Assembly (NCBI GenBank): GCA_964582295.1
Contig: CAZOQP010000002.1
Coordinates: 82,268-146,267, forward strand
Length of the DNA: 64,000 nt
Direction of reading: 5' to 3'
From: an uncultured Candidatus Saccharibacteria bacterium
GTDB taxonomy: Bacteria; Patescibacteriota; Minisyncoccia; Phycocordibacterales; Zambryskibacteraceae
Below the pieces are notes generated by a model. That model did not search any database, was not told the DNA's origin, and was given only the letters and a program-made list of their open reading frames with translations. Position 1 is the stretch's first letter; each line of letters starts with the position of its first letter. Positions 5,495 through 60,191 of this stretch are shown here, piece after piece. A program made the translations under genes and the position numbers.

Positions 5495-5552
5495 GGCGAT
5501 ATTCTATTCATCTAAATTACATTACACAAGCTATATTTTCATCAGATTTATT

Positions 5553-5627
5553 TAGAGCGAGAAAATCATGCTAAAAGAGACTAAGACTTGGGCAAGTGCC
5601 CCGGAGCGGTCTCTTTTAGTATGATTT
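5553..5627. repeat. conserved 65-nt hairpin element, copy 1 (19-bp stem, conserved 27-nt loop, conserved agagcgag flank)
   Basis: Stem is aaatcatgctaaaagagac / gtctcttttagtatgattt around loop taagacttgggcaagtgccccggagcg. The same architecture with a near-identical loop occurs at 60106..60180. It ends ~10 nt downstream of the rpsI stop. Confidence 0.6.
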
Positions 5628-5637
5628 TTAAGGGACT

Positions 5638-6060
5638 TTATCGTTTACTCCACTGCGGCGCCTTTCTTGCTTTCTTCAAACCGAACTTACGGCGCTCTTT
5701 CATACGAGGATCACGCTTTAAGTGCCCGCCCTTTTTAACATTTTTACGAAGCTCTGAATCGTAAACTACAAGTGCTCGAGCGATACCATGAGAAACAGCA
5801 TCTGCCTGGGAAGAAATACCCCCGCCTTTAGCCATTACCTCAACTGAAAAGGAATTCTCCATCTGCGCTGTTTTGAGAGGAGACAGAACCTTCGCCCTCA
5901 ATTCTGCGACAGGAAAATATTCTGTGAAAGACTTTTTATTTATAAGTATCGAAAACTCCGAAGCTTTTGTCATGCGCACTCGGGCAATGGAGGTCTTTCT
6001 GCGCCCCACCGCTTCAAAATATTCTGCCTTTTTCTCGGTTTTTTCTTTCTTGGTAGCCAT
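5638..6060 (-). CDS. rpsI: 30S ribosomal protein S9
   Basis: GRRKTSIARVRM and C-terminal KARKAPQWSKR are S9 signatures. Confidence 0.95.
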   Translation of the reverse strand: MATKKEKTEKKAEYFEAVGRRKTSIARVRMTKASEFSILINKKSFTEYFPVAELRAKVLSPLKTAQMENSFSVEVMAKGGGISSQADAVSHGIARALVVYDSELRKNVKKGGHLKRDPRMKERRKFGLKKARKAPQWSKR

Positions 6061-11208: not shown

Positions 11209-12840
11209 TTATTCTATTACCGCTTTTATACGTCGTACACCGGCAGAAACTGCCTCTTCTTTTATTATTCTGAACTTCCCTATCTCCGAAATATTCTTCA
11301 CGTGAGGCCCTCCGCAGAATTCTTTTGAATAAGCACTCTCAAGTTTTTCACCTATGTAATAGACGTTAACCTCATCCGGATATTTCTCTCCAAAAAAATG
11401 TCTGGCACCCAGCTTCTCTGCCTCTTCTTTCGGCATCTTCACCATATTGACCGGCAAGCCCTCCGATATTTTCTTATTCACAATATCTTCTACCTGCTGT
11501 TTCTCATCATCAGTGAGTTTCCGCGGAAACGAAAAATCAAAACGCGTTCTCTCGGTAGTGATATTGGAACCCTTTTGCATCACATCCTCCCCAAGCACTT
11601 CATGAAGGGCTTGATGCAAAAGATGCGTCGCTGTGTGATACCTGACTTCAATATCGCTGTGGCCAGCAAGCCCTCCTTTGAATTTTTGTTCTGCTCCTGC
11701 ACGTGAAAGTTCTTGGTGTTTCTTCAGTTTTTCATCAAAATCTGCAATATCAACCTCAATGCCTTTCTTTTTTGCAAGTTCCAAGGTCATTTCCAAAGGA
11801 AATCCGTAGGATGTGAACAAAGTGAAAGCATCCCTGCCTTTTTCAAACTCAATAAGCCCTTCTTTGAGAGTTTCCCTGAATTTCTTTTCTTCTTCTTTTA
11901 TTACTGCAAGTCCGTCATCAGCTACCATTGTGATCTCCTTAAGTCCCAAGACATCCGAATATTGGATAGCGCGGCGAAGAAGGCGTCTTAAGATATAACC
12001 TCTCTCCGTATTAGAAGGCCTTACACCATCCAATATCATATTCAAAGCAGTGCGAGTGTGATCCGCTACAATCCTCTCTGCTTTTATATTTGTTTCAGCC
12101 GACAAACTTTTTATTTTTGAGATTACTGGTTCAAAAATATCGGTATCAAAAACTGTATGAGCTTTTTGTACTACTTTCGTCAAACGTTCAAACCCCATTC
12201 CCGTGTCAATACCTTTTACATCAAGCGGTTTAAGAGTCTTGTCCTTGTTTTGATAGAACTCATTGAAAACGATGTTCCATACTTCAAGACCATCTACATA
12301 TATTTCAGAGGTCGGACCGCACGGACCTTCTTCTCCTGTGGGTCCCCAGAAATTATCTGCCCTCGGAGCACGTTTTATCATTATATTTGGGTCTATATTT
12401 TTCCAGATCTCTTCGGATTCAGTATCCGCAGGCACTTCGCCAGCTGGCGAAATCTCGCCTTCAAAAACCGAGACATAGTCTATTTTCAGACCCATTTCCT
12501 TTGTTATGAATTCATGCGCATATTGAATAGCTTCTTTTTTCCAATATCCTCCGAAAGAAAAGTTCCCAAGCATTTCAAAAAAAGTGAGGTGGCTTTCGTC
12601 ACCTACTTCATCAATATCCGAAGTACGCACACATTTCTGTATGGAAACGGTATTTAGGGAGCAGAAATCCTTTGTCGCATCTTTCTGCCCTATGTAGTAC
12701 GGCTTGAACTGCTGCATTCCTGCAGTAGTGAAAAGTACCGAAGGATCATTCTCCGGGACGAGAGATGCCGAAGGAACGACCGTATGCCCTCTCTTTTCAA
12801 AAAAATCCAGGAACTTTTGTCTTATTTCTTGAGAATTCAT
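11209..12840 (-). CDS. alaS: alanyl-tRNA synthetase, short form (catalytic + editing domains, no C-Ala domain)
   Basis: N-terminus EIRQKFLDFFEKRGHTVVPSASLVPENDPSVLFTTAGMQQFKPYY is the AlaRS class II core. Editing-site HxxxH (HTATHLLH) and CGGPH motifs are present. Only 543 aa, against ~870 typical. Confidence 0.85.
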   Translation of the reverse strand: MNSQEIRQKFLDFFEKRGHTVVPSASLVPENDPSVLFTTAGMQQFKPYYIGQKDATKDFCSLNTVSIQKCVRTSDIDEVGDESHLTFFEMLGNFSFGGYWKKEAIQYAHEFITKEMGLKIDYVSVFEGEISPAGEVPADTESEEIWKNIDPNIMIKRAPRADNFWGPTGEEGPCGPTSEIYVDGLEVWNIVFNEFYQNKDKTLKPLDVKGIDTGMGFERLTKVVQKAHTVFDTDIFEPVISKIKSLSAETNIKAERIVADHTRTALNMILDGVRPSNTERGYILRRLLRRAIQYSDVLGLKEITMVADDGLAVIKEEEKKFRETLKEGLIEFEKGRDAFTLFTSYGFPLEMTLELAKKKGIEVDIADFDEKLKKHQELSRAGAEQKFKGGLAGHSDIEVRYHTATHLLHQALHEVLGEDVMQKGSNITTERTRFDFSFPRKLTDDEKQQVEDIVNKKISEGLPVNMVKMPKEEAEKLGARHFFGEKYPDEVNVYYIGEKLESAYSKEFCGGPHVKNISEIGKFRIIKEEAVSAGVRRIKAVIE

Positions 12841-14088: not shown

Positions 14089-14700
14089 CTATATAAGCGT
14101 CTTCAAAACAGCAAAATCTTGTATAAGGGTCGGTTTTTGGGCTTGGTTGTAAATCGCAACCGCAGGATGATAAAGGGGAACCACTTTTATAGGGCCGTAG
14201 GGAGCATCACATTCTATGACCGTGCCGTGCAACTGAGATATCGGTACATCTTTTTCAATGCAATTGAATTTATCCAGAATATATTTCATGGAAAAGCGCC
14301 CGAGAGTGGCCAGAACCTGCGGGCGGATTATCTCAAGCTGACGATCAAGGTACGGGCTATAAGCATCTATCTCCTCCGGGAAGGGATCACGATTGCCGGG
14401 CGGGCGGTCCTTCACTATGTTTGTAATATACACATCCTTACGCGGGATATTCGCCGATTCCAGAAGTTCGTCCAATATTTTGCCGGCTCTCCCTACAAAA
14501 GGCCTTCCGGTTTTGGCCTCATTGGCGCCAGGGGCTTCCCCTATGAACATTATTTTCGCATAGTGGCTACCCTCCCCAATAACAGGCAGCTGCCCCGCCC
14601 CCAAACGCTCCGCATACAAAGGCAAGTCCCCCCCTCTTACGATCTCATCCTTCATCTCTTTCAACTTTTCAAACCTCCCATCTTTATTCTCTATATCCAT
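14089..14700 (-). CDS. uracil-DNA glycosylase, family 4
   Basis: GEAPGANEAKTGRPFVGRAGKILDELL is the family-4 UDG motif. Confidence 0.8.
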   Translation of the reverse strand: MDIENKDGRFEKLKEMKDEIVRGGDLPLYAERLGAGQLPVIGEGSHYAKIMFIGEAPGANEAKTGRPFVGRAGKILDELLESANIPRKDVYITNIVKDRPPGNRDPFPEEIDAYSPYLDRQLEIIRPQVLATLGRFSMKYILDKFNCIEKDVPISQLHGTVIECDAPYGPIKVVPLYHPAVAIYNQAQKPTLIQDFAVLKTLI

Positions 14701-14708
14701 TATATTTT

Positions 14709-14742
14709 TCTATTCTAATGTTCTTAAGAACTTGAGAATAGT
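14709..14742. repeat. palindrome family copy 1 (imperfect; core ctattctaatgttCTTAAGaacttgagaatag) between ArsR stop and udg start
   Basis: Shares 30/32 nt with the perfect copies at 15006..15049 and 16806..16845. Centred on an AflII CTTAAG site. Confidence 0.7.
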
Positions 14743-14979
14743 CTTACCGAGAGGAGAAAGAACATGTCTTACAGAATTTGCATCATTTCTTTTCCAAACA
14801 AGTTTTGCAATGGCAAGACGACGAATATGCTCGCTGGCAGTTTTGAAATTTATCTTTAAGATTTCAGATATTTCGCTCAAAGAAAGATCGGGCTGTTTTG
14901 AGAGTAAAGCTAGAATTTCAATCCTACGATGGTTTGCGAACCCTTTTATCACCCGTTCAATATCTCTAAAATTTTTCAT
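14710..14979 (-). CDS. ArsR/SmtB-family HTH transcriptional regulator (no Cys; non-metal-sensing type)
   Basis: MKNFRDIERVIKGFANHRRIEILALLSKQPDLSLSEISEILKINFKTASEHIRRL is an ArsR winged HTH. Start taken at the internal Met (ORF track 14710..15066 reads through the palindrome). A TATAAT lies ~10 nt upstream. Confidence 0.7.
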   Translation of the reverse strand: MKNFRDIERVIKGFANHRRIEILALLSKQPDLSLSEISEILKINFKTASEHIRRLAIAKLVWKRNDANSVRHVLSPLGKTILKFLRTLE

Positions 14980-15005
14980 AATGCTTTTTATTATAATACA
15001 TTCAT

Positions 15006-15049
15006 TATCTTCTATTCTAATGTTCTTAAGAACATTAGAATAGAAGATA
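15006..15049. repeat. palindrome family copy 2: 44-bp perfect palindrome tatcttctattctaatgttcttaagaacattagaatagaagata, overlapping the -35 region of the ArsR gene
   Basis: Every base is self-complementary about the CTT|AAG centre. Sits immediately upstream of the ArsR TATAAT and start codon. Confidence 0.75.
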
Positions 15050-15055
15050 CCGATA

Positions 15056-15757
15056 TCAATGACCAAGAATCTGTGTCAGTGTATATATCCAGTCTTCATT
15101 CTGCGGAGTTTCTTTCTTTTTGGTTGCCAAAAACCATTCCAGATATTCCCTGTCATTTTGGAGAACTTCGGCAACGGTCAGACCTTTGTATTTTCCAAAT
15201 GAAAAGCGCTTTATGATGCTGGGTTTGCCCGATACTTCCATCATTTGCTGAAGGTCCATTTTATTTAGATAAAACTCAAACAGTTTTTCAAGTACGGCTA
15301 CATCCCCCCTGGCGTCATGAGCTTGGCCCTCCACTTCTATCCCGTGAGCATAACGCAGATATTGAAGCTTGTGCTGGCTCAACACTGCTTCATCATCCAA
15401 GAACCTTGCAACTTTTAAAGTACAAATATATTTAGCGGGTATCAACCCTTCAGATTTCAAAATTGAAAGATCAAAAGCGGCATTATGGGCTACCACTATT
15501 GAATCTTCACTGAATAATTCCGCCAAGCGGACTTTCATGGGGCTTTCGGAAAATAATGGTTTATCCGCAACCATCGCCCGGCTGATGTGGTGAACACTAC
15601 TCGCCTCAAAAGACAATTCCACATCTTCGGGCGGCCTGAAAAGCTCCGTGGAATCTTCATCCGTTTTCCATACTTTGTATGAAAGCTGTACCAGCCGGTC
15701 TTTATCGGTAAGCCCCGTGGTTTCCGTATCTAAAAAAATTATTTTCGGCTCCTTCAT
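15056..15757 (-). CDS. DnaQ-like 3'-5' exonuclease (DEDDh) with C-terminal DUF3820-like domain
   Basis: IIFLDTETTGL (Exo I), VAHNAAFDLSIL (Exo II), HDARGDVA (Exo III). C-terminus FGKYKGLTVAEVLQNDREYLEWF. Confidence 0.7.
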   Translation of the reverse strand: MKEPKIIFLDTETTGLTDKDRLVQLSYKVWKTDEDSTELFRPPEDVELSFEASSVHHISRAMVADKPLFSESPMKVRLAELFSEDSIVVAHNAAFDLSILKSEGLIPAKYICTLKVARFLDDEAVLSQHKLQYLRYAHGIEVEGQAHDARGDVAVLEKLFEFYLNKMDLQQMMEVSGKPSIIKRFSFGKYKGLTVAEVLQNDREYLEWFLATKKKETPQNEDWIYTLTQILGH

Positions 15758-15772
15758 GATAGTAAATTATAA

Positions 15773-16609
15773 CTACTGCAGGTCCTTTATCTCGTGAAGA
15801 ACCATCTCTTTTTTATCTTCCGGCAAGCTAAGTGTGTCCAGGATAAGTGGGTCACTTGCGATAGTGTCGCACAAGATAACGCCTTGCGATAGAAGGGTTT
15901 GTTTCTGGAACTGATCAAGGCTGCCGATGCTTGTAACGGGTACCGCATTAGTTTCCATAATAAAATCATGAAGATTTCCTTTTTCAGGGTAATTCCATCC
16001 CACGAGCTTCAGCTTTTTGCATTCCGCATAGTGAATAGCGGTAGTGGTGAATTTGGTGTTAGTGATAAGCCACCCTTCCGTGAGCTTTCTATCAAAACCA
16101 TAATGAAAAACTGTCTCATCCAGATCATCAATGCGTGCTTTCACATAAAGCACCACTTTCAGATCAGATTTCACCCCGAGCTCGTTATGGAACTTTGCCT
16201 CAGCCATGATCAATTCTTTTTCATTCCAGGCCACCACATCTATCTCGTGCGGTACACACTCACCCAAAACCATCTGGCGGGTTTTCACTTCAAATCCTTT
16301 TCGGCGAAGTATCTCACCTACATAATCTTCAAACGGGAAGCCTGTGGGGCCTAAATTCATGACAGAGCGGCGCAGGGAATACCGGCGGGCCGCTTTGGTA
16401 TGCGAACTGTGTAAAATCTCAAATGCCTCTTTATAAATTTCCGCGGTGAGTGCGCCATCCACCAGAGTCCCAACGATCTTTTTAACTATTTCATCAGCAG
16501 TGTTTTCCTCTGCGCCAGCCTGAACCAAAGAATGGTGAAGTTTTCCTTCATCAAATATCTCCCGTCCGCCGTTTTCTTTTACTATAAAAATCTGCCCCAT
16601 TAAGACCAA
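15773..16609 (-). CDS. ATP-cone domain fused to Mrr-like PD-(D/E)xK nuclease-fold domain
   Basis: N-terminal IFIVKENGGREIFDEGKLHHSL is an ATP-cone. The central HEIDVVAW...LIMAEAKFH is a D-ExK restriction-endonuclease-like motif. Confidence 0.5.
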   Translation of the reverse strand: MVLMGQIFIVKENGGREIFDEGKLHHSLVQAGAEENTADEIVKKIVGTLVDGALTAEIYKEAFEILHSSHTKAARRYSLRRSVMNLGPTGFPFEDYVGEILRRKGFEVKTRQMVLGECVPHEIDVVAWNEKELIMAEAKFHNELGVKSDLKVVLYVKARIDDLDETVFHYGFDRKLTEGWLITNTKFTTTAIHYAECKKLKLVGWNYPEKGNLHDFIMETNAVPVTSIGSLDQFQKQTLLSQGVILCDTIASDPLILDTLSLPEDKKEMVLHEIKDLQ

Positions 16610-17710
16610 TTATACCCCACTCACAATGGCTCCTCCGAGTATATTCCTGCCACTATAAAAAACTACGGACTGCCCGGCGGCTATTGGTGATGGACTTTTC
16701 ACAGATACATACCATTCTCCTGTCGGCGACTTACCCTTTCGGAAGAGTTTAACTTTCTGTTTTGGCTGGCGATAACGAAACCTTGCCTCGCAACTTATCC
16801 CTTCCTTTCCTATTCTAATGTTCTTAAGAACATTAGAATAGGAAATTGATACGTTTGATAGTTTGAGGGTATATTCGCGGGCCAGGGATTTTTGTGGGCC
16901 TACCACCAGCACGTTCCTTTTAATATCTTTTTTTAAAATATACAACGGCTCATCGTCGGACGTTTCGTGTTCCACTCTAAATCCATGTCTCTCCCCTTCC
17001 GTATAAAACCACACGCCATTATGAGTGCCTATTTTTCTCCCTGCCTCATCAAGAACACTTCCCTTCTTCTCACGAATAGATATTTTCAGATATTCCTTTA
17101 GGTCTAGTGGGCCAAGGAAACAAATTCCCTGACTATCTTTCTTTTCTGCTACTGGAATGCCGGCTTTCTTTGCCAAAGCCCTTACCTCCTTTTTAGTGAG
17201 AGCTTCAAGAGGAAATATGACTTTTTCCAGATCTTCAGGTGGTACTGCCCACAGGAAATACGTCTGATCTTTCTGTGAGTCTTTCGGCTCACTTAAAAAT
17301 GCTTCATCGTTTTTAACCGAGATGCGTGCGTAATGCCCTGTAGCTACGAAATCAGCTCCGAGTTTTTTTGCTATTTCAAACAATGTAGAGAACTTCACGA
17401 ACTTATTACAGAGAATATCAGGATTAGGAGTTCTTCCCGCTTTGTATTCGCGTATCATTTCGTCCGCCACATATTTTTTGTACTGCTTTTTAGCATCTGC
17501 AATATAAAGCGGAACATTCAAATGCGCCGCCACACGCATAGCATCACGTCTCTCTTCTTTTTCGTTGCACGGGAAGCCTTCCGGGTGCCATGTTTCAATA
17601 AATACCCCAGAAACATCAAAACCACGCTCTTTCAGAAGATACGCCGAAACAGAGGAATCCACTCCTCCTGACATCCCTACCACCACTTTGACCCTTTTCA
17701 TCGCGACCAA
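16610..17710 (-). CDS. mnmA: tRNA-specific 2-thiouridylase MnmA, carrying an in-frame palindromic insertion
   Basis: VVGMSGGVDSSVSAYLL PP-loop, and C-terminal CEARFRYRQ plus GQSVVFYSG. Residues ~289-303 (SISYSNVLKNIRIGK) are encoded by the palindrome. Confidence 0.9.
   Translation of the reverse strand: MVAMKRVKVVVGMSGGVDSSVSAYLLKERGFDVSGVFIETWHPEGFPCNEKEERRDAMRVAAHLNVPLYIADAKKQYKKYVADEMIREYKAGRTPNPDILCNKFVKFSTLFEIAKKLGADFVATGHYARISVKNDEAFLSEPKDSQKDQTYFLWAVPPEDLEKVIFPLEALTKKEVRALAKKAGIPVAEKKDSQGICFLGPLDLKEYLKISIREKKGSVLDEAGRKIGTHNGVWFYTEGERHGFRVEHETSDDEPLYILKKDIKRNVLVVGPQKSLAREYTLKLSNVSISYSNVLKNIRIGKEGISCEARFRYRQPKQKVKLFRKGKSPTGEWYVSVKSPSPIAAGQSVVFYSGRNILGGAIVSGV
16806..16845. repeat. palindrome family copy 3: 40-bp perfect palindrome tttcctattctaatgttcttaagaacattagaataggaaa inside the mnmA coding sequence
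   Basis: Perfect inverted symmetry with the same 32-bp core as copies 1-2. The ORF stays open and in frame. Confidence 0.75.
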
Positions 17711-19930: not shown

Positions 19931-19950
19931 CTTTTATATTGTACCTCAAA

Positions 19951-19975
19951 AATAAAACCCCTTTAAAGGGGTTTT
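19951..19975 (-). terminator. hairpin aaaacccctTTAAAggggtttt after the HARE-HTH gene
   Basis: Perfect 9-bp stem flanked by A/T runs. Lies between the 19981 stop and the 19930 start. Confidence 0.4.
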
Positions 19976-19980
19976 ATTTT

Positions 19981-21045
19981 TTATTCCTTAACTACAAAAT
20001 GGTATTTTCCTTCCTTGTCCTTTTTGAAAAGCTTGGGGTTCTGAAGGTTCACTAAAATAGTGTTCTCTTTCACATAGCGTTCCTTGAGAACTTTTTCTAT
20101 GATCTTGTCCTTATGCATCGGGCCGTTCTTTTCAATGATATTCACAATGACATCCTTCACCACTCCCGGCATGTATCCCCATTCACGAAGAGCATATAGA
20201 CCGCGACCAACCAGAACAAAACGTGCGTCCTTTATAAGCTCGTTGTGGGTAGTCGCTACATGAGCGCGCTTGTTGAAATAGGTGGTGATGGCCTTGGCAA
20301 CATCACGGAAATGGATAGGAGAACCGTGTTTGCGGATAACAAGATATGCGTAATCGCGGATACCCTTGGCTTTCACATTCGCAGAAGTGGTTTTACCCCA
20401 TTCACCGAGAGGATTCTTCCCTATCTTGTGGGAAACATTGAGCCAGCGTCTGATAACTTCTTCGTTCTTGTATTCATCTGAAACTTCCTTCACGTATTCC
20501 AGGAAATTCTTCACGAGTTCCGATTCAGGCACGAGTTCATTATCATCAAGAGAAGAATAAAGTTTCTCCAAAGCTCCATGAACGGCCTTAGCCAGATTTT
20601 TGTCCACATGCCAGCGCTGTTTGAACTGCTCATCCTCTTTTTCTTTTGTGAACTGCTCGCCCAAAACCAAAAGAAAATGAATGTGATTGGAAGTTGAATC
20701 ATCCGCACCAAATTCCTCCATGAGGTCTTCATGCGTCACAACGCCACCTAGAGTTTTTACCGCGGCCTTCAATTCATCAAAAGCTGCCGTCTCTTTTGAG
20801 TATTCTTTTGATTTGCGGATATTCTGAAGCGCATAAGCATCTATCTGTCGAACTCTTTCGCGAGTGATTCCATATTTATTGCCGATAGCTTCAAGCGTCA
20901 TGGGCTTGGTCTCGGGTCCCAGGCCATAGCGGCGAGTCATTATATCTCTTGCCCTTACAGGAAGAACGGAAAGCAACCTCTTCACCACTTGTTTTGGCTT
21001 GAAGGAGAGCTTTACTTTTGCCTTCTTTGGGCTGGTTTTCTTCAT
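19981..21045 (-). CDS. sigma-70 region-4 domain + HARE-HTH domain protein
   Basis: N-terminal RRYGLGPETKPMTLEAIGNKYGITRERVRQIDAYALQNIRK is sigma region 4. C-terminal PIHFRDVAKAI...DARFVLVGRGLYALREWGY is the HARE-HTH motif. Confidence 0.6.
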   Translation of the reverse strand: MKKTSPKKAKVKLSFKPKQVVKRLLSVLPVRARDIMTRRYGLGPETKPMTLEAIGNKYGITRERVRQIDAYALQNIRKSKEYSKETAAFDELKAAVKTLGGVVTHEDLMEEFGADDSTSNHIHFLLVLGEQFTKEKEDEQFKQRWHVDKNLAKAVHGALEKLYSSLDDNELVPESELVKNFLEYVKEVSDEYKNEEVIRRWLNVSHKIGKNPLGEWGKTTSANVKAKGIRDYAYLVIRKHGSPIHFRDVAKAITTYFNKRAHVATTHNELIKDARFVLVGRGLYALREWGYMPGVVKDVIVNIIEKNGPMHKDKIIEKVLKERYVKENTILVNLQNPKLFKKDKEGKYHFVVKE

Positions 21046-36347: not shown

Positions 36348-36679
36348 ATGTCCTTAGAAGAAAACCTCCAAGAGACCATATGTCGTAAATAACGAAAGCA
36401 TCAAGAAGACGATTACCCAGGTTATTTTCTTTTCTGTGCTCACTTGGATGGATTTGATTGTCTTACGCACAAAGCCCGCCGCCAGGAGCTCTAGGCTTTC
36501 GCCCAGAACGTATAGGTTTCCCCATACGACCATCCAAGGAACCCTGACGACGGGTTTTCTGACTTGGATGGTTTTAGAGCCGTGCCTCTTACGAGGGTTA
36601 GGCTAATTTCCCTACACTTTCACTCACAAGTCAAACTATATTATAATACCCCTATATTGTCAAGGAAAATACGTGGATA

Positions 36680-42641: not shown

Positions 42642-43649
42642 TTATATGTTGAATAAGGGGTTAATAATGCCAAGTCCCGCAAGACCGGCGAGAAGCGCGA
42701 ATATTCCGAGACCTACCACCACAACACCTGCTGATTTAAAGAACAAGGGTGCATGTTTTGAGTGAGCGAATGAAGCGGACCCGAAGGAAAGGAGTACAAG
42801 CATCGGCAAAGTTCCCAGTGCAAATGCGAACATGATCAAGAATCCTGAAAGAAACGAACCGCTTGAAAGAGCGGCTACCTGCATTGATTGCGTAAAGCCG
42901 CACGGCAGGAAAAATGTCCCAAAACCAATGATGAGAGGCGTGAGTGTCTTATGTTCTATCTTTCTGAAGAAATCAAAAATTCCCGATGGCAGCGCAATTT
43001 TATTTTTCGCAAACACTCCGAGTAAATTCAAACCGAGGAAGAGCATCACCACGGAGGCCAGAAGCCCTAGGATGGCTGAAAATGTAAAGCTTATACCTAT
43101 TGCATTGCCGATGAGCCCAAGCACCCCGCCGAGCACAGCGAAGCTCACCAATCTTCCAGTGTGAAAAAGCAGAAAAGTTTTGGTATCGCTTACATTATCC
43201 TGAGATATTTTTGCCGAAAGCGAGAGCACCAGCCCACCAACTATCGCGAGACAGCTTGAAACCGAGGCGATGAGTCCTATCAAAAAACTTGTAGCGGGCG
43301 TCGTCGCCCCACCCAGGCCCAAATTCAAAATACCCGACTTTTGTAAAAGAAAGAACAGAGCAAGGAATCCAAGTCCGATCGGGACGGCCTGCCAAATAAC
43401 ATTATTGTTTTGCTTTTCCGAAGCAAGTTTTTCTACCGACAAGGTGTAGCCGTTCTGCCTAATCTTTTCAGTGAGGATATGGGCGAGCTCCTCCGGGTTC
43501 TTTTCGCTATCAGTAATGATATCAACAGTTTCCCCCTTCAGGTCCACCAGTGCACTTTTTACAAAACTCTCTCCATTTAGAACATTCTCTATCAGCATCT
43601 TGCATGATGCGCAGTGAGTTCCTGAAACATGGAATGTGTATGTTTTCAT
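42642..43649 (-). CDS. HMA domain fused to a CcdA/DsbD-like polytopic permease
   Basis: N-terminal GTHCASC (MxCxxC HMA). Membrane part has Cys in two TM segments (SSCLAIVGG, FLPCGF). Confidence 0.5.
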   Translation of the reverse strand: MKTYTFHVSGTHCASCKMLIENVLNGESFVKSALVDLKGETVDIITDSEKNPEELAHILTEKIRQNGYTLSVEKLASEKQNNNVIWQAVPIGLGFLALFFLLQKSGILNLGLGGATTPATSFLIGLIASVSSCLAIVGGLVLSLSAKISQDNVSDTKTFLLFHTGRLVSFAVLGGVLGLIGNAIGISFTFSAILGLLASVVMLFLGLNLLGVFAKNKIALPSGIFDFFRKIEHKTLTPLIIGFGTFFLPCGFTQSMQVAALSSGSFLSGFLIMFAFALGTLPMLVLLSFGSASFAHSKHAPLFFKSAGVVVVGLGIFALLAGLAGLGIINPLFNI

Positions 43650-48088: not shown

Positions 48089-48118
48089 AAGGTTTGAACC
48101 CTTATAATTCAAAAACCC

Positions 48119-48146
48119 GCACCTAGGTGCGGGTTTTTGAATGCCC
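48119..48146 (+). terminator. rho-independent terminator aaaaacccgcacctaggtgcgggttttt
   Basis: Perfect stem with flanking A and T runs. Confidence 0.55.
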
Positions 48147-48357: not shown

Positions 48358-48433
48358 GGGCCCTTAGCTTAGTTGGTAGAGCGCCTCATTTGCAATGAGG
48401 AGGTCATCGGTTCGAATCCGATAGGGTCCACCA
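48358..48433 (+). tRNA. tRNA-Ala (anticodon UGC), CCA encoded
   Basis: Cloverleaf GGGCCCT-TA-GCTT-AGTTGGTA-GAGC-G-CCTCA-TTTGCAA-TGAGG-AGGTC-ATCGG-TTCGAAT-CCGAT-AGGGTCC-A-CCA. G3:U70 alanine identity pair present. Confidence 0.9.
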
Positions 48434-60063: not shown

Positions 60064-60105
60064 AACATTTTGCCTATTATTTTATTCCACCTTCCTAATC
60101 ACATT

Positions 60106-60180
60106 CAGAGCGAGAGATGACAACGAAAAGAGACTAGGACTTGGGCAAACGCCCCGGAGTGGTCTCTTTTCGTTGTCATC
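60106..60180. repeat. conserved 65-nt hairpin element, copy 2
   Basis: Stem gatgacaacgaaaagagac / gtctcttttcgttgtcatc around loop taggacttgggcaaacgccccggagtg. Preceded by cagagcgag. Ends ~11 nt downstream of the FKBP gene stop. Confidence 0.6.
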
Positions 60181-60191
60181 CCGAGCGTCGT

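Follow-up and report, generated by a model that had tools for sequence, protein, structure and literature searches.

A palindrome at both ends of a winged-helix regulator gene in Parcubacteria as its likely operator

In the 64-kb stretch analysed here (the window), part of the 209-kb contig CAZOQP010000002.1, the gene for an 89-aa winged-helix protein of the ArsR/HlyU type carries a 28-bp palindrome at both of its ends: one copy lies in its promoter region and the other makes up its last codons. This bracket recurs in relatives across Parcubacteria and its coding copy is under selection at the DNA level, and sequence comparison suggests that the protein most likely has this palindrome as its cognate operator. 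The whole reading, in which an autoregulated factor has an operator at both ends of its gene and orphan copies arise by copying at the level of DNA, has in our estimate a probability of about 0.6. A full-text literature search found no description of the motif or of the gene-bracketing arrangement in bacteria of the candidate phyla radiation (CPR), and to our knowledge experiments have so far revealed almost nothing of how transcription is regulated in this radiation. The pair of protein and site (89 aa and 28 bp) is concrete, widely conserved and testable in vitro without cultivation.

Results

The palindrome has a 32-bp core, CTATTCTAATGTTCTTAAGAACATTAGAATAG, of which three copies lie inside 2.1 kb, two of them perfect (15012-15043 and 16810-16841) and one with 2 mismatches (14710-14741). 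The 64-kb window holds no further core copy even when 8 mismatches are allowed, and dinucleotide shuffles of the window give 0 expected core matches. Dyad symmetry extends past the core into copy-specific flanks, reaching 44 bp (15006-15049) and 40 bp (16806-16845) in the two perfect copies. The 28-bp motif of the palindrome is ATTCTAATGTTCTTAAGAACATTAGAAT, with ATTCTCAAGTTCTTAAGAACATTAGAAT as the natural 3' variant; a fourth weak match, at 42953 with 3 mismatches, looks like chance. An earlier reading of the same DNA, made from the sequence alone (the sequence-only reading), had placed a 44-bp perfect palindrome ahead of a TATAAT and the regulator ATG and a third perfect copy within mnmA, and we recovered both. 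It had also set the imperfect copy between the stop of the ArsR-type gene and udg, which was wrong: this copy is the last 9 codons of the regulator together with its stop (14710-14712). The features of the bracket are the following.

15006..15049, no strand: promoter-proximal site, a 44-bp perfect palindrome with the 28-bp motif at 15014-15041
14712..14739, no strand: 3' site, the 28-bp motif; its core, 14710-14741, has 2 mismatches to the perfect palindrome
16806..16845, no strand: orphan site, a 40-bp perfect palindrome with the 28-bp motif at 16812-16839, in frame within mnmA
14710..14979, minus strand: 89-aa ArsR/SmtB-fold winged-helix regulator, HlyU-like; Pfam HTH_5, without Cys and without alpha5 metal ligands
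14991..14996, minus strand: candidate -10 box TATAAT, read from the sequence, between the upstream site and the ATG; putative function
15004-15009: alternative -10 candidate GATAAT, read from the sequence

The 44-bp palindrome lies 6 nt past the stop of an upstream ExoX-like gene and 34 nt ahead of the regulator ATG. A public short-read contig from the same organism (Logan SRR6868922_669513; L001 among our loci) begins 56 nt upstream of this ATG, within the 44-bp palindrome (from ~15035 downwards), and the palindrome probably breaks assemblies.

To find out how far the bracket is conserved, 80 loci with a protein identity of 58-78% were fetched from species-representative genomes; these loci share kinship and come from Brenner-, Wolfe-, Moran-, Giovannoni-, Lloyd-, Zambryski-, Taylor-, Nealson-, Sungii-, Nomura-, Kaiser-, Niyogi- and Lipton-bacteria, among others. 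A scan with ATTCT-N4-TTCTT-R-AGAA-N4-RGAAT, which has 20 specified positions and two purine (R) positions, gave 222 matches in the real loci vs 4 in shuffled sequence. The motif was present at the 3' end of the regulator gene in every locus (80/80), a second copy ended at most 150 nt upstream of codon 1 in 77/80, and both sites were found at no more than 2/20 mismatches in 74/80. Related genomes with the gene and no palindromes nearby, which the sequence-only reading had named as the finding that would speak against it, were clearly not seen among these loci. Its proposal that the palindrome is the operator of this repressor is strongly supported for the repressor's own promoter by the upstream and 3' copies; the part that extended the regulon to udg and mnmA found no support, as described below.

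The regulator matches Pfam PF01022 (HTH_5) with 32.7 bits against a gathering score of 22, and this match and the sequence confirm the assignment of the gene as a Cys-less helix-turn-helix (HTH) gene of the ArsR/SmtB type. The AlphaFold2 model (predicted local distance difference test, pLDDT, 91) has the canonical ArsR/SmtB topology a1-a2-a3-a4-b1-b2-a5, with helices at residues 2-14, 17-28, 34-41 and 45-57, strands at 61-66 and 69-74 and a last helix at 76-88. The closest solved structures found by Foldseek were HlyU, CzrA and CadC, with template modelling (TM) scores of 0.84-0.89, and a weaker match was obtained to the archaeal centromere-binding winged HTH (wHTH) protein AspA (profile E 6.6e-5; Foldseek 4rs8). 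Metal and redox ligands are absent, there being no Cys and no His in alpha5, and the NCBIfam metalloregulator model NF033788 scored 41.6, below its cut-off of 55, which places the protein outside the metalloregulators. Neither domain nor Foldseek matches revealed a nuclease, HUH or transposase domain in what is a plain 89-aa wHTH protein. Its homologues form more than 1000 clusters, and the named ones among the matches listed are Patescibacteria/Parcubacteria. In 20 homologues with ~70% identity, the C-terminus ILKFLRTLE is nearly invariant, and 2 of the 20 end in ILMFLRTLE, the exact translation of the perfect palindrome. The recognition-helix residues N44, K46, T47, E50, H51 and R54 are invariant, and so are four TTCT blocks of the site. 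The palindrome-encoded peptide falls within residues 76-88, helix alpha5, and aligns with alpha5 of HlyU, which indicates that it is a native part of the fold and not an appended tail.

Read on the minus strand, the 3' copy is ATT CTC AAG TTC TTA AGA ACA TTA GAA TAG, that is, residues 81-89 (ILKFLRTLE, the end of helix alpha5), to which the 28-bp motif adds the first base of the stop. Codon choice in this segment was compared with the expectation from local codon usage.

Phe84, TTC: observed 71/71, expected 26
Arg86, AGA: observed 71/71, expected 15
Leu85, TTR: observed 70/70, expected 24
Ile81, ATT: observed 59/60, expected 27
Glu89, GAA: observed 70/71, expected 43

The synonymous choice is thus frozen where codons fall in the TTCT blocks, and third positions in the N4 spacers (Leu82, Lys83 and Leu88) vary freely, so that at the coding copy the DNA is under selection as well as the peptide. 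In a paralogous wHTH subfamily (38-50% identity, C-terminus ..FIKTF..) the gene likewise ends in a site, and its register differs: either the palindrome centre supplies the stop, as TAA or TGA (..TFSYS*), or a TAA of the left arm does so (..KTF*), or the reading frame continues across the entire site (..IFSNSQEDENN*). The paralogue site is a variant with AC/GT flanks and A/T at positions 9/20, and examples were found on the metagenome contigs L087, L104, L146, L171, L184, L091, L082 and L123, the last of which holds both wHTH subfamilies, 3.5 kb apart. Because paralogues keep a gene-end site in other registers, the conserved feature is the position of the site and not the peptide, and this finding together with the frozen synonymous sites argues that the bracket is selected at the DNA level. 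Many of the dispersed orphan sites described below have the AC/GT flanks typical of the paralogue subfamily, which suggests two related protein/site pairs per genome.

The invariant positions of the site form four TTCT-type blocks (1-5, 10-14, 15-19 and 24-28), separated by N4 spacers that are species-specific. In non-coding copies the spacers stay complementary (AATG/CATT, CAAA/TTTG, AGTG/CACT, GGTG/CACC, CACA/TGTG), and the central dinucleotide is the only part that is often asymmetric (CTTGAG or CTCAAG). The symmetry continues over as many as 12 bp of flanking sequence, which varies between sites even in one genome. In a cross-site permutation test that kept position-specific composition (offsets 3-8), complementary flank pairs numbered 219 at upstream sites vs 139±9 permuted, and 111 at orphan sites vs 85±7. 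The arms and centre of an upstream site differ from those of the 3' site in the same genome by 1.80 mismatches vs 3.21±0.17 permuted; the arms often look like a mirror image of one arm, left or right, of that 3' site, and the central hexamers of a genome's two sites correlate. On the sense strand, G.T and A.C mismatched pairs are symmetric (42 vs 48, 44 vs 48 and 88 vs 93), and most of the coding 3' copies would fold poorly as hairpins, since only 14-15% are complementary at positions 6 and 8. The lack of a G.T excess and the poor hairpins of the coding copies place the symmetry in double-stranded DNA or its replication, and not in RNA. Quasi-palindromes are known to mutate by template switching, which makes inverted repeats longer and more perfect (PMC7202029, PMC3820800). 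The flanks particular to each site and the concerted arms would both be explained by such a process.

In many loci a TATAAT, often TGnTATAAT, stands between the upstream site and the ATG, which follows 6-10 nt past the box, and this gap suggests that leaders are short or absent. In some loci the ATG comes 3-12 nt after the upstream site itself, and there the TAGAAT end of the site is a candidate -10 box. The upstream site thus lies on the core promoter or next to it, at a distance that varies between loci, and this position would fit autoregulation without fixing its sign. The two sites are 266-381 bp apart, centre to centre, and the strongest periodicity of this spacing in a 5-25-bp scan was 10.5 bp, a weak signal in a statistic that ignores phylogeny (R 0.26, jitter-null P 0.03); it hints at same-face binding or looping.

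The neighbours of the regulator vary between deep lineages, and within lineages it keeps a stable, co-directional place among housekeeping genes, with the order dus-dnaX-gene in 11 loci and the order murC-gene-rsmI in 12. In none of these 23 syntenic loci was the gene seen inverted relative to dnaX, murC or rsmI, and we conclude that it is vertically inherited and not mobile. In most of the 12 loci with rsmI, the 3' site is followed by the next ATG at 3-20 nt, a spacing at which occupancy of this site could gate the downstream gene. In the window, the genes around the bracket are the following.

14089..14700, minus strand: family-4-type uracil-DNA glycosylase (udg), ATG at 14698-14700, 9 nt past the regulator stop and 11 nt past the last base of the 3' site
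15056..15757, minus strand: ExoX-like 3'-5' exonuclease gene, upstream of the regulator and co-directional
16610..17710, minus strand: mnmA (tRNA 2-thiouridylase), host of the orphan site; Pfam tRNA_Me_trans plus M and C domains, PDB MnmA E 5e-82

Conserved synteny with udg or mnmA was considered and rejected: only one other genome (L042) has the same neighbours, and beyond a few intragenic hosts no gene family recurs at orphan sites, so that the small regulon of itself, udg and mnmA that had been suggested is not conserved. Between mnmA and the ExoX-like gene, at 15773-16609 on the minus strand, lies an unusual fusion of an N-terminal ATP-cone with an Mrr-type restriction-endonuclease-like domain, which also adjoins the regulator module in L042.

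Further copies of the motif occur within 10 kb of the gene in ~45% of genome loci, and their density, as extra sites per 10 kb, falls with distance.

0.4-1.5 kb from the gene centre: 1.05
5-10 kb from the gene centre: 0.20
More than 10 kb (55 kb surveyed, window only): 0

Metagenome contigs scanned for the exact pattern yielded at least 120 stretches; among the 120 listed, 33 hold the gene with its two sites and 87 hold a site with no gene in the available flanks, a ratio that gives, as a very rough estimate, ~3-5 orphans per genome. Among 151 orphan sites listed, 113 (~75%) are intergenic and 36 (~24%) lie inside open reading frames (ORFs), and since only a small part of such compact genomes lies between genes, the intergenic position is strongly enriched. 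The recurrent intragenic hosts among these 151 are Dus (x3), an IscS-like enzyme assigned by eye from sequence (x2), MnmA (x2-3) and TspO (x2). One generally stop-free frame, encoding (Y/H)SxxL(K/E)NxR(I/M), is used by 27 of the 38 intragenic or near-start copies that were scored, and the in-frame hosts include TspO (L004/L050), the IscS-like enzyme (L102/L161), Dus (L007/L012/L174), Fpg (L039) and MnmA. MnmA, the IscS-like enzyme and Dus may all act in tRNA modification, a link that may be coincidence or may reflect shared ancestry of close genomes.

In alignments of Dus, Fpg and MnmA orthologues the presence of the site differs; for instance, a ~24-aa insert in L012 Dus is absent from 5 of 7 aligned Dus orthologues. 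Around 224 sites there was no target-site duplication as long as 4 bp, and direct-repeat flanks of 2-3 bp were in a small excess that allows no interpretation (3 bp: 11 vs 4.5 expected). The mnmA copy of the window encodes YSNVLKNIRI, in the linker before the C-terminal barrel, without net length change at the site relative to S. pneumoniae MnmA. This loop is hypervariable in length and sequence among 65-74%-identical relatives; the same peptide is recognisable in two of them (FHSNVLTNVRM in P0132 and INYSNVL in P0128), and others are 7-11 aa shorter. A clean insertion in mnmA was thus rejected: there is no clean empty site, and an insertion can be proposed only from the loop-length differences of +7 to +11 aa. 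As relatives share or lack the loop peptide, the mnmA copy appears to be an older, lineage-restricted acquisition and not a conserved part of a regulon. In close relatives the MnmA linker is also a hotspot of unrelated length-variable inserts (ENTRDCEQ, ENDRNRTQ and a 30-aa insert in P0127), and a second variable insert is found around residue 140. The other proposal of the sequence-only reading, a mobile module made of the gene and its repeats, has support for its core idea, as palindromes are dispersed, occur in some orthologous genes and not in others and are concentrated around the gene, and has no support for the gene itself, which sits in stable contexts and is never inverted.

Discussion

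We propose that the functional unit would be site, gene and site, with one operator in the promoter region and the other in, or abutting, the 3' end of the gene, where in this subfamily it would double as codons of the C-terminal dimerisation helix. Dimers of the protein would probably recognise the four TTCT blocks at both sites, arranged as ATTCT-N4-TTCTT / AAGAA-N4-AGAAT in a 12-4-12 geometry. When bound, the upstream operator would autoregulate the gene through promoter occlusion, and the two sites, ~300 bp apart and weakly phased, may cooperate via looping; alternatively, the 3' site could act as a roadblock that gates read-through to the next gene. Orphans would arise from short insertions or duplications, preferentially near the gene, and would persist where they are tolerated, either in intergenic DNA or, in one stop-free frame, in protein loops. 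The perfect symmetry and the site-specific palindromic flanks of non-coding copies would most readily result from arm-to-arm copying of DNA, by intrastrand template switching at quasi-palindromes, and not from an RNA structure.

Several results weigh against this reading. Orphans show no promoter-side preference (co-directional 64, convergent 17 and divergent 7 vs a background of 738/160/162), and no gene family recurs upstream of sites when the neighbours of the 151 listed orphans are clustered, so that a classical regulon is not demonstrated. Additionally, site-specific palindromic flanks are not predicted from protein recognition alone, and a 28-bp operator that spreads by insertion, even in frame, is unusual for a transcription factor. 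The gene calls in the fetched loci are simple, crude ORF calls, and the phasing of the two sites has the limits given above.

Much of the system is ordinary for the ArsR/SmtB family. Its autorepressors (SmtB, CzrA and CadC, and the non-metal HlyU, NolR and PagR) have the same fold and size and 12-2-12 inverted-repeat operators, and in both cases a dimer-symmetric operator of ~26-28 bp is placed by the regulator's own promoter. In contrast to the metal-sensing members, the regulator described here lacks metal and redox ligands. What is not ordinary is a second, family-wide operator at the 3' end of the gene, present here as alpha5 codons and lying on the C-terminal or stop codons; a motif conserved at the nucleotide level across the radiation; dispersed copies, some of them in frame; and site-specific palindrome growth. 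Auxiliary operators in coding regions that act with looping are found in the lac (O2 in lacZ), gal (OI in galE) and purR (O2 in purR) systems. As in these, a promoter-proximal operator is combined with a second one in coding sequence a few hundred bp off, with a hint of phasing; unlike in these, the second operator is the regulator's own C-terminal and stop codons, in three registers in the paralogues. This is a natural case of dual coding, with the operator written over the regulator's own C-terminal codons and, in paralogues, in other registers, and it may explain why the binding motif is frozen over a very deep radiation.

A bolder version of the same idea, which we regard as speculative and rather doubtful, is that of a self-propagating regulator-palindrome pair, in which the operator is locked by the dimerisation helix that it encodes or terminates, and new copies arise by transposase-free, hairpin-templated copying and spread locally. 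If true, such a transposase-free 'mobile operator' would rewire or titrate a global regulator across Parcubacteria, with operator copies, seeded from the ends of the gene, spreading locally into intergenic DNA and, through the single open frame, into loops of housekeeping proteins such as MnmA, Dus, the IscS-like enzyme, TspO and Fpg. The orphans in any case present short palindromic sites that are tolerated in frame within essential enzymes, and bear on how binding sites spread and how palindromes grow by template switching.

An unlikely alternative, if the best supported of the rivals, is that the palindrome is a selfish element like the Rickettsia palindromic elements (RPE), the repetitive extragenic palindromic (REP) sequences or the miniature transposable elements with inverted repeats (MITEs), with the ends of the wHTH gene as master copies and a protein that promotes or controls the spread and does not regulate transcription. 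The varying presence of the site in Dus, Fpg and MnmA orthologues would be expected under this view, as would the preference for one stop-free frame (27/38), the abundance of sites without a nearby gene (87 of the 120 listed stretches), a 5-fold higher density of extra copies within 1.5 kb of the gene than at 5-10 kb, orphans without promoter preference, and non-coding arms that look like mirrored arms of the same genome's 3' copy. These points are set against a protein that has no nuclease or HUH domain, a low copy number (a single orphan in the 64 kb, and none at more than 10 kb from the gene, where 55 kb were surveyed), the lack of target-site duplications of 4 bp or more, a gene vertically inherited in housekeeping operons, a motif frozen over a very deep radiation, unlike typical selfish repeats, and its near absence from viral contigs (1 match in 2.9 million), which also led us to reject a phage origin of the motif. 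RPE and prokaryotic MITEs are palindromic repeats that occur both between genes and in frame in housekeeping genes (PMC10969869; PMC1779305). Our palindrome resembles them in being intergenic and in frame, with a presence that varies between orthologues. It differs in length (28-52 bp vs 100-150 bp), in far fewer copies per genome (3 copies in 64 kb), in the absence of target-site duplication, in its tie to one gene for a conserved DNA-binding protein and in a core frozen across distant lineages. REP and REPIN sequences are short dispersed palindromes that flank genes for REP-associated tyrosine transposases (RAYT; HUH/Y1). The likeness is a gene with short palindromes on either side, of which further copies lie dispersed in the genome; the difference is that the flanked gene encodes a wHTH protein and not an HUH/Y1 transposase, and that the copies are a handful and not hundreds.

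It is quite improbable, although some features recommend it, that the system organises the chromosome, with the wHTH protein acting as AspA or as ParB on a parS-like palindrome, in segregation or nucleoid organisation and not in gene regulation. The AspA matches point this way, and so do a site within the protein's own gene, the clustering of sites around that gene, and intragenic sites that are tolerated and orphans that are not promoter-linked. One parS lies within spo0J, and parS is extremely conserved across phyla, as is the motif studied here; ParB/parS and AspA thus share with it a palindrome within or beside the gene of its binder, nearby clustering and tolerated coding copies. However, the transcription factors HlyU, CzrA and CadC are clearly better matches, the upstream site is integrated with the promoter and consistently adjoins the gene's -10 box, as autoregulation expects, and no ParA-like ATPase, other partner NTPase or ParB adaptor is a conserved neighbour (the neighbours are ExoX-like and udg here, and dnaX, murC, rsmI or dus elsewhere). 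Furthermore, GC skew is uniformly negative over the window, without the switch that would mark an origin or a terminus, and proximity to either was rejected.

That the palindromes work at gene ends as RNA hairpins, be it in termination, in RNase III processing or in transcript stability, is highly improbable. Sites often lie 1-40 nt past a stop codon, non-coding copies would form stems of 14-25 bp, and the complementarity of the flanks covaries. Against this, mismatches compatible with G.U pairing are not in excess over A.C mismatches on the sense strand, the 3' copies fold poorly although they are conserved universally, and conservation lies on sequence blocks and not on pairing. In addition, the stems are A+T-rich without a U-tract, a terminator scan finds no terminator at the three sites of the window, and Rfam, searched at a permissive E-value and at the gathering threshold, gave only sub-threshold matches to miRNA hairpins. 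On the wobble symmetry, the Rfam result and the terminator scan, both an RNA element and an intrinsic terminator were rejected.

Finally, a site-specific recombination module, in which the gene would be an excisable or invertible cassette between 28-bp sites (formally 11-6-11, dif/pdif-like), has next to no probability: length, geometry, an asymmetry confined to the central dinucleotide (CTTGAG/CTCAAG) and correlated between a genome's two sites, and a gene bracketed as in the pdif modules of Acinetobacter, where genes lie between recombination sites, are outweighed by a gene never inverted in 23 syntenic loci, by conserved neighbours that include no recombinase (no search aimed at recombinases was made), by variation in the arms around an invariant CT..AG centre, the opposite of Xer sites, and by in-frame intragenic orphans, which are unexpected for recombination sites.

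Other features of the window

A second hairpin family, unrelated to the palindrome, occurs at 5551-5640 (intergenic) and 60105-60190. Its inner part is conserved (AGAGCGAGA..AAAAGAGACTArGACTTGGGCAAnnGCCCCGGAGnGGTCTCTTTT), and its outer stems differ between the copies and stay complementary (AAAATCATGCT/AGTATGATTTT vs GATGACAACG/CGTTGTCATC). No Rfam match was obtained for it; candidate identities are a structured RNA that lacks annotation and a REP-like element. Two further perfect palindromes, at 48107-48142 (36 bp, ATTCAAAAACCCGCACCT/AGGTGCGGGTTTTTGAAT) and 19948-19981 (34 bp, AAAAATAAAACCCCTTT/AAAGGGGTTTTATTTTT), have G+C-rich centres and A/T-run flanks and look like bidirectional intrinsic terminators; the first lies ~200 nt from a tRNA gene (48358-48430). 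A LOOT RNA (Rfam RF03000) was found at 36491-36604 on the minus strand with 71.5 bits, above the gathering score. Lastly, the alanyl-tRNA synthetase ORF at 11209-12840 on the minus strand, with tRNA-synt_2c and tRNA_SAD domains, encodes 543 aa, and the typical bacterial enzyme is much longer.

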